DNA from: Candidatus Aenigmatarchaeota archaeon
GTDB taxonomy: Archaea; Aenigmatarchaeota; Aenigmatarchaeia; CG10238-14; SCSR01
DNA: 38,295 nt
Direction: 5' to 3'
Assembly (NCBI GenBank): GCA_039091335.1
Contig: JAWCME010000003.1
Coordinates: forward strand, 1-38,295
A program made the position numbers. How positions within the stretch are numbered: the stretch's first letter is position 1; each line of letters starts with the position of its first letter. Of this stretch, positions 33,001 to 38,295 are shown in pieces.

Positions 33001-36000
33001 TGACACAAGAAACTTTTATTCATCTTTGGAAAAATGGACTTATTTATGAAGACTTTAGACCAACAAACTATTGTACTGTTTGTAGAACTGCAATATCGGA
33101 CGCTGAAGTAGAGTATAAGGAAAGAGAAAGAGAGCTTGTATACGTAAAATTTAAAATAAAAGAAAATGGAAAGGAAGTTGTGATTGCAACCACAAGACCA
33201 GAATTACTTTGTTCGTGCAGAATAGTTATTTTTAATCCTGAAGATAAAAGATACGAAGATCTTAATGGTAAACATGCGATAGTTCCTATTTATGGGCATG
33301 AGGTTAGAATAATTCCACACCCGTATGCAAAGCAAGATTTTGGCTCAGGGCTGGTTATGATATGTTCTTTTGGGGATTATACCGACATAAGACTTTTAAG
33401 GGAGCTTGGGATAGAACCAATTTATAGCATAGACGAAGAAGGAAAAATGAATGAAAATGCTGGAAATTATGTTGGGTTGAGTGTTGAAGAGGCGAGAAAA
33501 AAAATAGTCTCGGATTTGAGTAAATTGGGGCTTATAGAAAAAATCGAAAAAATAGTTCATAGAGAGCCGATATGCTGGAGGTCCAAGAATCCCATAGAAT
33601 TTATAGGACTTAAGGAGTTTTATTTGAAGCAGGTTGAGTTTAAGGAGAAGATCTTTGAGATAGCAAACAACATTAAATTTTTTGCACCTGAGAGTAGACA
33701 AATACTTATAGATTGGATAAACTCAATAAATGTAGACTGGGTCTTATCAAGAAGAAGATATTATGGAACAGAGATTCCAATTTGGTATTGTAAAGTTTGT
33801 TCTTACCAATATGTACCAAATCCTGGAAAATATTACATACCTTGGAAGGAGAAATGCCCTATTAAAAAATGTCCAAGGTGTGGAAGTAGAACATTCGTTG
33901 GAGAAACAAGAACGTTTGATACATGGTTTGATTCTTCAAACTCAGAATTATATATATTGGGTTATCTGTGGGATAAAAAATTCTTTATGAAAAATTTTCC
34001 TTGCACCATTCGACCGCAGGGAAAAGAGATTGTTCCAAGTTGGTTATATTACACCCTACTGAAATCTTTCCATCTATTTAAGAAAAAACCTTTTGAGGTT
34101 GTTTGGCTTCATCATCATGTGGTTGATGAAAAAGGGGAAAAGATGAGTAAGAGTCTTGGAAATGTCATAGACCCAAATGAAGTTATTAAAAAATATGGAG
34201 CAGAAGCATTTAGAATATGGAGTTGTTTGGAAGGAGATATAACAAGGGGAGACATAAAATGCTCTTTTCAAAGAATAGAAGGGGCTTCAAAATTCTTGAC
34301 AAAACTTTGGAACATTTCACGTTTTATATCATCTTTTCCAATTCCAAAGAAAGCGAAGCTTATTGAAACTGATAAATGGATCTTAGCAGAACTTTCAAAT
34401 TTAATAGAACAAGTAAGGAATATGTACGAAGAATATAGGATGAGTGATGCTGCAATTCTAATTAGAAATTTCTCCTGGAATGTTTTTGCATCTCATTACA
34501 TTGAGCTTGTGAAAAAAAGAGCATATGGGAAGGGGTTTTCAAAAAATGAAATGATTTCATCCTGGTTCACTTTGCATACTTGCCTTAAATCAATACTTCT
34601 TTTGCTTGCTCCAATCATCCCATTTCTCACTGACTATATTTGGAGAAAAATGTACAGCAAAAAAAGCATTCATATAGAGCAATTTCCAAAACCAAAATGG
34701 AAATCAAAATTGATTGGGTTAACACCAAAGATAATAGAGTTCAATTCCATTGTTTGGAGTAGGAAAAAGGAAATGGGAATTAGTCTAAAAGAAGGAATAG
34801 AAATAGAAATACCAAAAGAACTAAAAAAAATTAAGAAAGATTTGGTTGCCATGCATAATATTAAAGATTAGATTTTGTTTGTTCTTTCTGCAATTTTATC
34901 TGTTTTCAAAATTCTTTAAGGATTAATTTAAAAATATCAATATAAGATTAAAGAAATTTGAATTTAGAAAGATAGCATGGAAGAAGAAAAAACATTAAAA
35001 TTGAAAAAATTGATTAAAGAGCTAGAATCAATAAGAGGAAGACATACTGAGCTAGTTAGCGTATACATACCTTCTGGTTTTAATTTAGCCGAAACACTAA
35101 ACATGCTTAGGGAAGAATATACCCTTGCTCAAAATGTTAAAGATAAAACTGTTAGAAAAAATGTAATGTCTGCTTTAGATAAAATAATTCAGCATTTAAG
35201 GTTTTTTAGAAGTACCCCTGAGAACGGGCTTGTTGTTTTTTGCGGAAATGTTTCGAGCGATTTAGGAAAAACAGAAATAAAATTATGGAGCATCATACCT
35301 CCTGAAAAAATTACAGCCAAAATATATCGTTGCGACCAAAAATTTATCCTTGACCCAATAAAAGAGTTGATAAGGGAAAAGGAAATTTACGGTTTAATAG
35401 TATTAGACGCAAGAGAAGCTAATATTGGATTACTAAAGGGAAAGAGAATAGATAGCCTCAAGCATTTGGAATCAACTGTTCCCTCAAAAACAGTAAAGGG
35501 GGGGATGAGTAGCGGAAGGTATGATAGGTTAAGGGAAGAAGCTATTCATGAATTTTTAAAGGAAGTTGGAGAGAAGGCGTCTGAAATATTATTGAAAGAA
35601 AATAATTTGACTGGGATAATAGTTGGTGGGCCAGGGCCATTAAAAGAAAGATTTGTAAAAGAAGATTATCTTCATCCTGATTTGAAGAAAAGAGTGCTTG
35701 GAACAAAAGACACAAGCTATACGGGAGATTATGGTCTAGAAGAGCTTGTAAAAAAATCTGAAGAAATTTTAGAAAATACTAGTGTTGTTAGAGAAAGGGT
35801 TGTTTTAGAAAGATTTTTCTCGGAATTGCAAAGAGGTGGAAATGTAACTTATGGTTTTGAAGAAACTTTGAATGCTCTAGAGATGGGGGCTGTTGAAAAA
35901 ATTTTAATTTCCGAGAATTTTGATTGGTATACAGTTAAGTTAAGGTGCGAGTGTGGAAATGTTTTGGAAAAAAACCTGCCAAAAGAAAAAATTGATTCTC

Positions 36001-38295
36001 AGGTTTGTAACAAGTGTGGAAAGATTATGATGGTAGAGGAAAAAGAAGAGATGATGGAAATGATAATAGAAAAGGCAAAAAGCGTTGGTAGTGAAGTTGA
36101 ATTTATATCAATTGATACAGGAGAAGGAATGCAATTCAAGGAATTGGGTGGAATTGGTGCTTTTCTAAGATATAGAATTTAAATTTTTCTCTCAAAAAAA
36201 ATTTTATGAAACCTCAAAAACTATTTATAAGATATTGCATCGAAGAACAGATCTTTCAGAAAGGCTTTATGATATGCAGCCCACAGTCTTTCGGTAGACG
36301 TAAGAAAAAATTGGAAAAATACGCATACCAAATAATGTATTTAAGTGAGAGTCCTGGTTTTTTAATCTATAGAGTTAGAGGCACAAGAGATTATTTAGAT
36401 ATGATTTTGAAGAGAGAAAAAAACAAATCAACTCATACCGTGTTATTTCAAGATGCTGCTGAAAAATTTGCGAATTTGGAAAAAGCAAAGCTTCTTGACT
36501 GGTTTGTTGAATATAAGAAGTGAAATAAAAATTTTATAACCTTAAATTAAAAAAATTAATCGCATTTTCTGTTGTTATTTTATCAACTTCCTCAAAGCTA
36601 ATTTTTTTTATTTCAGCAATTTTTTCAATAACTGTTTTTACCGATCTCGGGTCATTTCTTTTTCCTTCTGGACCAAGCCAAGGCGAATCTGTCTCTGTCA
36701 TTAAAAAACTCAATGGAATATCTCTGACAACCTTTTTGTGTTTTTTGCTTCTCAAAAGTATTGTGTTAACAGAAACATACCAACCATTATCTATTACTCT
36801 TTTGACTAAATGGTTTGCACCAAACATATGGAGAAGAACTTTCTCACTTCCTTCCTCTTCCAAAATTTTTATTGCATCTTCATACGCAGCTCTACAATGG
36901 ACAACTATCGGTTTTTTTAATTCTTTTGCAAATGAAATAAACTCGGTAAAAAGCTCCCTCTGTTTTTCTCTACCTTCTTTATCTTTAATCCAATCAAAAT
37001 CAAGACCAACCTCACCTATACCACAAATCTTTTCTTTGTTCTTCTTCAATATCTCTAAAAATTTGTTTTTTTCTTCTTCTCCTATTTCTTTAATATATTC
37101 TGGATGTATTCCTGCTGTACAGAAAACAAATCCATTATATTTTTCAACCAAACTTAAACTCAAATCTAAATCTTTAGGATGTGCGCAACTACTTATTACC
37201 GCTTTTAATTCTTTTTTACATTTCTCTATAACTTCGTCTCTATCATTATAATAATCCTCTTGCTCTAAGTGGCAATGACAATCAATCATAAAATTTAATT
37301 TAATTGTAAATTTTAAAAACTCTTCCTAGTTTTATTAGTCTATTTAAACTTTCTTTTCCTCGTTGGTTAAAGCTATCGCATTAACTATTCCATGTTGAGA
37401 AGGTCTGGAAGTAACTATTGCATTTCCTATTTCGGTTTTAATTATACTTCCTCTTACTATTATTTTTCTCCTTGCAAAATGAGGATTCGCAGGAGTTTCA
37501 ACTACATCAATTATTTTAACTTTTTTTGATGTTTTTGTTTTTGGGTCTAAAACATTTGCAAACTGAACAAAAAATGCCTTTATTTTTCTGTTCCCACCCT
37601 TTGTTCTTATCTTCTTTCTTCTTTCTTCCCCTATCTTGGTATGAGTAGGTAAGCTACCAAGTTCGTGTTTTCTCTTCTTCCTTGCTATTTTTATAATTCC
37701 GCCTGTTTTCTTTCTTCCTTTTTCCCCATGCCACATTGTCATAAAACCACAAGTATTTGATTTTTTGTTTGAATAGATTTATTAACTTTAAACTTAATAT
37801 TTGTTTTATTAATAAAAGGGAGAAGATGACCGAAAGACCAATAGATGCATTAGATAAAGCGAAAGGTAAGAGAGTTATTATAAAACTTAAGAATGGAGAA
37901 GAAATTACAGGAATACTTAAGGCATTGGATTTGCATCTGAACATTTGGCTTGAAGAAGCAGAAGTACAAAAAAACGAAAACAAGACAAAGCTAGGAACAA
38001 TTTTGGTAAGAGGAGATACAATAGTATACGCTTCACCAGTACAGCTATAGTATATTTATTTTTTACAGTAATATCTCTTATATTTAAAAGAATGGATAAA
38101 AATAATTAGAATGGATGTCTTGAAAAAATACATAAATGAAGAAAATTATCAATATAATCAACAAGATAACTCTTATGTAACTATTTTAAATTTTTTGTCA
38201 GAATGGAATTTTGGAGCAAAATATGGCCAAATAAAAAGGGAGTTGAAAGTTGAAAAATTAAAGACAAAATTGATGAAACTTCGTGATGAAGGTAT

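Follow-up and report, generated by a model that had tools for sequence, protein, structure and literature searches.

The sole archaeal class I release factor (aRF1) found in this Candidatus Aenigmatarchaeota genome (G000; bin 87% complete) carries a methionine in place of the glutamine of the GGQ motif. The protein is an orthologue of classical aRF1, its catalytic loop is conserved, position 0 of that loop (the GGQ glutamine position) is restricted to bulky hydrophobic residues in such factors, and the replacement has arisen repeatedly and is accompanied by absence of the GGQ methyltransferase Mtq2. GGQ is the standard universal motif of release factors, convergent in the bacterial and archaeo-eukaryotic proteins and methylated in all three domains, and mutants, structures and simulation have fed a long debate over whether its glutamine side chain serves chemistry or packing and positioning. 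Here, we lean towards the view that several archaeal lineages end all translation with a factor lacking an amide side chain at or near GGQ, the hydrophobic residue being an encoded substitute for methyl-glutamine that renders Mtq2 redundant.

Identity of the aRF1 gene and its loop

The gene lies at 34977..36182 (+) of the window, that is, the whole stretch of 38,295 nucleotides analysed, and encodes 401 amino acids, PSKTVKGGMSSGRYDRLR. The product scores 472 bits against TIGR03676 (cut-off 234.7), possesses the N, M and C domains (Pfam eRF1_1/2/3) together with a CxC...CxxC zinc-ribbon-like insert, and yields an AlphaFold model (pLDDT 90) whose top fold match is the aRF1 structure 4af1. The stop-codon motif YxCxxxF is intact (YRCDQKF, 35325..35345, +), and NIKS is present as the variant NVKD (35133..35144, +), which is common to the closest kin. 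When the loop columns are left out of the tree, the protein falls with GGQ-bearing aRF1s. Architecture, profile score and stop-codon motifs are thus those of the classical family, but the motif reads GGM, which makes the protein a variant rather than a typical member, and there is neither a glutamine to be N5-methylated nor an Mtq2 that could be found. The neighbouring families fit poorly: the aVLRF1/acVLRF1 profile NF041024 gives 29 bits (cut-off 125), with all three domains retained and GGMSS in place of the GGxSQ loop, and the Pelota profile TIGR00111 gives 78 bits (cut-off 177.65), with an eRF1-type N domain, a conserved loop and no sign of the Sm-like N domain or degenerate GG-less loop of Pelota/Dom34.

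The catalytic loop, K171-R186 (35487..35534, +), reads KTVKGGMSSGRYDRLR and contains G175-G176-M177-S178-S179, encoded by GGG GGG ATG AGT AGC (35499-35513). As an earlier note on this DNA had proposed, Met177 (35505..35507, +) stands on the catalytic glutamine, with which it aligns without gaps in 4af1, 4crn, 3agk and 3j5y. The +2 position is Ser179 (35511..35513, +), so the loop is devoid of any amide side chain; the AlphaFold model places this serine in the first turn of helix 177-205, with a loop pLDDT of about 71 and the geometry of an unbound rather than a ribosome-bound protein.

The GGMSS sequence is real, and agreeing contigs exclude an assembly error: those that cross the loop in two runs of a single study, X1 (possibly the source sample) and X2, show no differences, and a contig from run X3 (a second study), which begins just 14 nt before the ATG, shows none in the loop. 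The 87% completeness and the run of G within the loop might suggest that the sequence is in error or that a canonical GGQ aRF1 resides outside the bins, but either is scarcely credible: besides the concordant contigs, all 70 genomes of the host order that were read are non-GGQ, which extends the earlier note's observation on order relatives; no second full aRF1 occurs among the loci examined in 210 genomes, nor was one found in this genome, as that note had also stated; and five GGW genomes from outside the phylum have one strong eRF1_2 match apiece.

Conservation, repeated origins and Mtq2

Loops were read in 210 Aenigmatarchaeota genomes, comprising 131 non-GGQ and 79 GGQ genomes. Position 0 in the former is W (75), M (53), Y (2) or F (1), never a small or polar residue, and the alanine previously listed there was not encountered. 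K-6, G-2, G-1, S+1, R+4 and R+9 are unchanging in 131/131, and the synonymous codons of invariant flanking residues vary freely; together with the bulky hydrophobic restriction, this pattern indicates selection, not decay. All but one of the 128 full-length non-GGQ genes encode an NIK[SD]-type motif, and the aRF1 gene itself is present in 34/34 high-quality genomes of the host order. None of the 120 nearest homologues has GGQ; their loops read MSQ (100, corrected from a previous 98), MSA (9) and MSS (2), the last two as tallied before, followed by FSQ (2), WSQ (2) and an intein after GGM (5). Loop inteins, which had been noted in many relatives, do occur in 22/131 non-GGQ genes, with no special tie to that state (11/79 GGQ genes). 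The names of outlier proteins that were looked up were uninformative.

The glutamine position changes 13 times on a tree built from 189 archaeal aRF1 sequences, nine of these changes being forced by well-supported branches. GGW had further independent origins in a Thermoprotei group to which Zestosphaera belongs and in two other single genomes, in a scan that detected only intein-free GGW-S[TCN]-Q genes. We take the swap to have arisen on five or more occasions, with a possible reversal in family f38. Another 26 GGWSQ scan matches (Thermoplasmatota, Methanotrichales), about 24-33% identical to the query, share the three-domain scaffold but lack the NIKS/YxC motifs; they are probably baeRF1 family 10-like paralogues, an assignment made by likeness rather than by family scan.

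Mtq2 was detected in 0/131 non-GGQ genomes versus 61/79 GGQ genomes. The proposed coupling of Mtq2 to GGQ thus survives on the non-GGQ side, and retention in GGQ genomes is less complete than supposed: 18/79 lack the enzyme, so the association with GGQ loss is one-way only. In this genome, Mtq2 was not found (best TIGR00537 match E 1e-8; best match to an Aenigmatarchaeota-specific HMM 49 bits), although Trm112, named with it in the Mtq2/HemK2-Trm112 methylation of aRF1 (PMC6144793), is still encoded. The joint loss of glutamine and Mtq2 recurs in the unrelated Thermoprotei, where 0/38 tested genomes of the Zestosphaera-containing group have the enzyme. Within Aenigmatarchaeota the association comprises only three independent pairs (p 0.25), a number with which significance is unreachable. 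Several matches in non-GGQ genomes were discarded as Mtq2: the two over cut-off, from G003 and G267, are 380-aa methyltransferases without NPPY, those of family f27 and G375 are RsmC-like by eye and cluster together, and four in GGW Thermoprotei represent another paralogue, one found alongside true Mtq2. The f38 GGQ genomes may have regained Mtq2 by transfer: their enzyme is set apart in the tree, its closest named homologues being mostly from Woese- and Nanoarchaeota, but a single Aenigmatarchaeota clade is not rejected by the AU test (p 0.35).

Position 0, the +2 glutamine and peptide release

This aRF1 probably releases peptides and serves as the normal termination factor of the cell: the N domain would read all three stop codons, aEF1A (encoded in the genome) would bring it to the ribosome, and the Gly-Gly loop would enter the peptidyl-transferase centre in the usual way. 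We consider it somewhat probable that the hydrophobic side chain takes over the packing role of methyl-glutamine, with methionine (Trp, Tyr or Phe in kin) occupying the N5-methyl-glutamine pocket (A2451, 2452, U2506), and that hydrolysis is carried out by the position-0 backbone NH and the 2'-OH of A76 of the P-site tRNA. Such a side chain would be a built-in, modification-free stand-in, leaving Mtq2 without a substrate and hence lost, and a glutamine at +2 would help to anchor the loop yet be dispensable.

Several observations support this reading. The aRF1 is the only one found, no Pelota was found in the genome, and the paralogue has no glutamine, all of which favour aRF1 as the working factor. 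That paralogue (782..1489, -), the sole further family member found, is an aVLRF1/acVLRF1-like protein of 235 aa with a truncated N domain and no C domain (Pfam acVLRF1 63.5 bits; under the NF041024 cut-off), lies downstream of smc-scpA-scpB-like genes and has the loop KKGGSSAARF (GGSSA), without glutamine as the earlier note had it. All three stop codons are in use in 411 long ORFs (TAA 211, TGA 125, TAG 75), and no excess of in-frame tandem stops, a sign of leaky termination, was seen in this genome, the only one analysed for it; both results support ordinary termination. Published studies assign the glutamine side chain a packing role in which methylation adds van der Waals contacts to U2506, A2451 and 2452 (PMC5799190), ascribe catalysis to the glutamine backbone amide (PMC6742477; PMC3467058), and identify the A76 2'-OH as the nucleophile, with methyl-glutamine positioning the loop (PMC13672221, summarising Aleksandrova 2025). 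Other reports count against packing: mutation of any GGQ residue is reported to be lethal in bacteria (PMC9589212), yeast with Q182E could not be reproducibly propagated (PMC12440015), and PMC5799190 also places the glutamine carbonyl on the catalytic water, a group that Met or Trp cannot supply. Trp is also far larger than methyl-glutamine.

The 23S rRNA of this genome departs from the Rfam archaeal consensus at positions that, by their motifs, we take to be E. coli 2452, 2453, 2497, 2499, 2503, 2555 and 2576. U2576 is found in 61/61 Aenigmatarchaeota 23S loci, and U2452 and non-A2503 are equally common in GGQ and non-GGQ genomes, in a comparison where motif class was taken from the family for 7/61 loci and several rows were broken by insertions near 2451. 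The peptidyl-transferase centre is thus strongly divergent in the phylum, to the same degree in GGQ genomes, and it is near-canonical in two GGW Thermoprotei. Co-evolution of the 23S active site was accordingly rejected as a requirement, and the lack of a 23S change tracking the substitution is a further point against packing.

The role of +2 bears on an alternative that we regard as unlikely, in which a +2 glutamine (GGxSQ) takes over catalysis after a small loop rearrangement, the hydrophobic residue acts as a spacer, and GGMSS-type factors are weaker or use Ser/Asn. Glutamine occupies +2 in 115/131 non-GGQ versus 7/79 GGQ genomes, and in 6/6 distant W/F outliers versus 21/104 GGQ proteins among unbiased representatives; across nine independent pairs, it is associated with loss of the position-0 glutamine (median sign-test p 0.03, relied on in place of an earlier p 0.004 that took in rows from a pattern requiring Q+2). 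This association fits a catalytic +2 glutamine equally well. Asn at +3 in 12/13 GGWSA/GGWSS loops of families f35, f38 and f39 also speaks for that alternative, and the GGxSQ glutamine is taken as catalytic by Burroughs and Aravind (PMC6514570). However, the glutamine is not the shifted one that the earlier note envisaged: R-[FY]-x-R follows at the same distance in non-GGQ and GGQ proteins, +2 is A, S or Q in GGQ proteins as well (A. pernix aRF1 reads GGQSQ), and the register is unaltered, with +2 inside the first helical turn. Moreover, +2 glutamine changes nine times among non-GGQ tree rows; +2 is A or S in 16/131 non-GGQ genomes, and the losses, which occur in the apparently sole release factor, include this genome, G070, G076 and 11/120 close homologues with no nearby Asn. 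These repeated losses support packing, and a catalytic +2 glutamine would leave the W/M/Y/F restriction at position 0 unexplained.

It is improbable that aRF1 acts as a stop-specific counterpart of Pelota, confined to stop decoding and to recruitment of the splitting machinery, with Pth2 or another factor cleaving peptidyl-tRNA afterwards. Pth2 is encoded here and in 4/4 further genomes examined, and Pelota is not over cut-off in five genomes checked, this 87% complete bin being one; but Pth2 is also carried by the GGQ control G187, inteins persist at the loop site, and the loop keeps its length, GG pair and invariant Arg/Lys, whereas non-catalytic Dom34 and most baeRF1 loops are variable in length and poorly conserved. 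VLRF1-like tRNA cleavage at termination, suggested by the similarity of GGxSQ to VLRF1-clade loops, is very improbable for a classical three-domain aRF1 that here has no glutamine, and cutting a tRNA at each termination would be costly.

Relation to known families and significance

Classical aRF1/eRF1 proteins (TIGR03676; Halobacterium 4af1, Aeropyrum pernix 3agk) share with the present factor the three domains, fold, NIKS-type and YxCxxxF motifs, loop length, GG, S+1 and downstream arginines, and differ in having glutamine where Met (W/Y/F in kin) stands here; Mtq2 was not found in genomes with the replacement. The aVLRF1/acVLRF1 proteins of Burroughs and Aravind (2019; PMC6514570) have the GGxSQ loop of most relatives but are accessory paralogues without the C and/or stop-codon domain; here GGxSQ sits on the main three-domain factor, and its +2 glutamine is absent from this genome. 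The literature searched returned no report of GGQ-less main release factors, GGxSQ being described only for VLRF1 paralogues.

Natural and apparently essential Met/Trp factors, with no glutamine in the loop of this genome, are ready-made test proteins; aRF1 is accepted by mammalian 80S ribosomes (PMC3467058). If our interpretation is true, the 'universal catalytic glutamine' would be shown in nature to be a packing element rather than a catalyst, and the non-GGQ factors would also point to the purpose of glutamine methylation. We predict that the register so far assigned to the GGxSQ paralogues aVLRF1, acVLRF1 and baeRF10 may be wrong.

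The aRF1 gene and its loop

The aRF1 gene (34977-36182, + strand) encodes a protein of 401 amino acids whose loop reads PSKTVKGGMSSGRYDRLR. An earlier note had placed a Met of this protein on the catalytic Gln, and the assignment holds: a gap-free alignment to four solved aRF1/eRF1 chains sets their GGQ glutamine on Met177 (position 0 below), the TIGR03676 score is 472 bits (cut-off 234.7), all three eRF1 Pfam domains are present, and the AlphaFold model (pLDDT 90), in which a helix begins at 177, matches aRF1/eRF1 best. Contigs from two sequencing runs of one study, the first of them possibly the source of the assembly, span the loop with 0 differences, and a contig from a second study is concordant but starts just 14 nt before the codon; an artefact is scarcely credible.

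Searches of this 87%-complete genome returned one further family member, an aVLRF1/acVLRF1-like gene (782-1489, - strand) whose loop, GGSSA, likewise lacks Gln, and no Pelota, in keeping with the earlier count of a single full-length class I release factor. The genome encodes aEF1A, Pth2 and Trm112, and all three stop codons are in use. The aRF1 without GGQ appears to be the sole release factor of these cells; hydrolysis by another factor is improbable, and release by tRNA cutting still more so. The neighbourhood (28304-38050) holds no termination-specific gene. Upstream in that neighbourhood lie radical SAM, Nre, FeS-assembly domain and metallophosphoesterase genes, with a class I (Val-like) tRNA synthetase adjoining aRF1; TatD, eS8 and an Sm protein follow downstream. 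Genes resembling smc, scpA and scpB (named by eye) stand directly upstream of the aVLRF1-like gene (782-5249, - strand). Beside a tRNA-Pro, at 15464-15552 (- strand), lies a tRNA predicted by ARAGORN whose two-base anticodon is unreadable; it perhaps contains an intron.

Loop and methyltransferase across the Aenigmatarchaeota

All 118 genomes of the order CG10238-14 (112 matched) and 160 of the 253 in the rest of the phylum (150 matched) were searched, and the loop was read in 210 of the matched genomes. GGQ occurs in 79; the other 131 have Trp (75), Met (53), Tyr (2) or Phe (1) at position 0. Every order genome with a loop read is non-GGQ (70/70), as the earlier note had held, although the Ala that it listed beside Met, Trp, Tyr and Phe is found in none of the 131. 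In these 131 genomes Lys-6, both Gly, Ser+1, Arg+4 and Arg+9 are invariant while codons are free to vary; selection therefore maintains a large hydrophobic side chain at position 0, and the site is not decaying. Outside the loop, the column most associated with GGQ loss is residue 234 (YLHx; window 35676-35678), which is Tyr in 100/129 non-GGQ rows, seldom so in GGQ rows, and Pro in the present genome. Three records titled Micrarchaeota or Nanoarchaeota (L381, L367, L379) have aRF1s placed within the Aenigmatarchaeota GGW clade, which suggests mislabelled bins or transfers.

The Gln that the earlier note took to be shifted occupies +2, the ordinary second position after Gln, with no register shift: this residue is Q in 115, A in 14 and S in 2 of the 131 non-GGQ genes, and A in 42, S in 30 and Q in 7 of the 79 GGQ genes. 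A hand-over of the catalytic role to Gln+2, the main rival to the packing role proposed below but rather unlikely, draws on an association with non-GGQ loops (9 independent pairs, median p 0.03) and on the Asn that most GGWS[AS] loops have at +3, but is weakened by the repeated loss of any amide from the loop, as in this genome, G070, G076 and 11/120 nearest homologues. Among non-GGQ rows, +2 changes 9 times. Inteins directly after position 0, reported earlier in many relatives, are indeed present in 22/131 non-GGQ genes but also in 11/79 GGQ genes; since both classes carry them, they mark a conserved site and lie outside the novelty. Many archaeal aRF1s among P0121-P0270, GGQ ones included, have an intein there, and our literature search returned no paper on aRF1 inteins. 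Because GGW relatives exist for the intein-bearing GGM genes of families f5 and f6, the flanking codon may have been co-converted.

Mtq2 (TIGR00537), the methyltransferase modifying the GGQ Gln, scores over cut-off in 127/371 genomes of the phylum. Once borderline matches were read (true Mtq2 below cut-off in G226, G302 and G303; other methyltransferases in G003 and G267), it was present in 61/79 GGQ genomes and 0/131 non-GGQ genomes; its absence from every non-GGQ genome was therefore as claimed, while its retention with GGQ is common rather than general. These raw counts are inflated by kinship, because only 3 independent pairs remain (p 0.25); on an aRF1 tree of 203 rows, from which 7 partial rows and the loop and intein columns had been removed, the state at position 0 (Q or not) needs 4 changes, 3 of them forced. 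Since 18 GGQ genomes, some near 90% complete, also lack Mtq2, loss of the enzyme need not lead to the substitution and may precede it. Two such genomes of family f8 (G121 and G123, loci L158 and L159; 81% and 90% complete) have the loop GGQSQMRY, which resembles a non-GGQ loop apart from Q0, possibly an intermediate state in which the enzyme was lost first. In family f38, Mtq2 is present in 6/7 GGQ genomes (the seventh is 58% complete) and 0/31 GGW genomes. Its GGQ members (L098, L187, L188, L195, L217, L219, L220) form two groups nested among GGW relatives, with Mtq2 in all but one genome; the enzyme ends in FFE, as in Woese-/Nanoarchaeota, and other Aenigmatarchaeota Mtq2 end in IPWE. Reversion to GGQ with Mtq2 re-acquired is possible; an AU test did not reject one Aenigmatarchaeota clade for Mtq2 (p 0.35).

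Independent origins

On an archaeal aRF1 tree (125 usable representatives of 150 returned, plus 64 Aenigmatarchaeota rows), position 0 changes 13 times, 9 of them forced. GGW or GGF, in each case with Q at +2, is the loop of six distant proteins. Two singletons, P0194 (GGS, intein-bearing) and P0247 (GGE), are candidates only. A GTDB scan for intein-free GGW-S(TCN)-Q genes, which demands Q at +2, returned 114 loci: 85 aRF1-like, 26 paralogues and 3 chance or unreadable. Thermoprotei account for 39 loci, among them those of Zestosphaera tikiterensis and Ca. Zestomicrobium, where the loop is of A. pernix type with W replacing Q. Mtq2 is over cut-off in 0/38 tested GGW Thermoprotei (four sub-threshold matches represent another paralogue). 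Among genomes sampled from the same order without regard to the loop, at least 6 of them GGW, 105/151 have a match at E<=1e-15, and 16/16 top matches read group as Mtq2. Two single genomes, G374 and G375, also have GGW and no Mtq2. The GGW gene was the sole strong eRF1_2 match in five genomes checked, with two weaker matches unread. Counting the Thermoprotei group, G374, G375, the main Aenigmatarchaeota clade and G162, non-GGQ aRF1 arose at least five times, every lineage being without Mtq2. The 26 paralogues (L308, L339, L355, L376, L382 and others), three-domain GGWSQ proteins of Thermoplasmatota and Methanotrichales without NIKS/YxC stop-codon motifs, resemble baeRF1 family 10.

Peptidyl-transferase centre and mechanism

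The 23S rRNA (L221; G000:C1:83872-87099, - strand) has a divergent peptidyl-transferase centre: in our own numbering, assigned from sequence motifs, it retains A2451, U2506, G2553, U2585 and A2602, and the positions that differ from the Rfam consensus are 2452 (U), 2453 (G), 2497, 2499, 2503 (C), 2555 and 2576 (U). Across 61 Aenigmatarchaeota loci (L221-L281), U2576 is found in all; most have U2452/G2453 and either C or U at 2503, and some families carry C2500/C2504. Several of these positions are sites of antibiotic-resistance mutants. Insertions of ~90 and 39 nt in L221 (gene coordinates about 2420-2510 and 2678-2717) and breaks right at A2450-A2451 in L237, L239, L242, L246 and L230 are possibly rRNA introns. 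Of the three nucleotides described as packing against methyl-Gln, one is 2452 (PMC5799190). The changes are phylum-wide, GGQ genomes included, and two GGW Thermoprotei have a near-canonical centre; we therefore rejected them as a requirement for GGQ loss and regard the centre as a separate finding, at most permissive.

For the substitution itself, we lean slightly towards a reading in which Met, Trp, Tyr or Phe at position 0 would supply the packing of methyl-Gln without modification, and Mtq2 would therefore be redundant. Published accounts describe the Gln side chain as packing in the centre, where methylation gives it further van der Waals contacts (PMC5799190). They assign catalysis to the backbone amide (PMC6742477; PMC3467058) and the role of nucleophile to the A76 2'-OH, with methyl-Gln positioning the loop (PMC13672221, a secondary summary). 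Against packing, GGQ mutations are reported lethal (PMC9589212), yeast with Q182E was not reproducibly propagated (PMC12440015), and in one model the Gln carbonyl holds the catalytic water (PMC5799190).

GGQ has been called universal in a/eRF1 (Atkinson et al., PMC2613156), with GGQ ascribed to classical aeRF1 and GGxSQ to aVLRF1/acVLRF1 (Burroughs and Aravind, PMC6514570), and a Haloferax volcanii study places Mtq2 in all archaea (PMC6144793). PMC8131318 and PMC13183943 supply background only. The main text of a preprint on divergent peptidyl-transferase centres (10.1101/2024.11.12.623245) names only Thermoprotei and Methanomethylicia, and neither Aenigmarchaeota nor release factors, though its figure or supplement alignments may include such sequences. 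Our literature searches, with subscription journals mostly outside their coverage, returned no report of a non-GGQ aRF1. The departure of aRF1 from GGQ, a motif regarded as universal, is real, has occurred repeatedly and is maintained by selection, and in each lineage tested the methyltransferase Mtq2 is absent as well.
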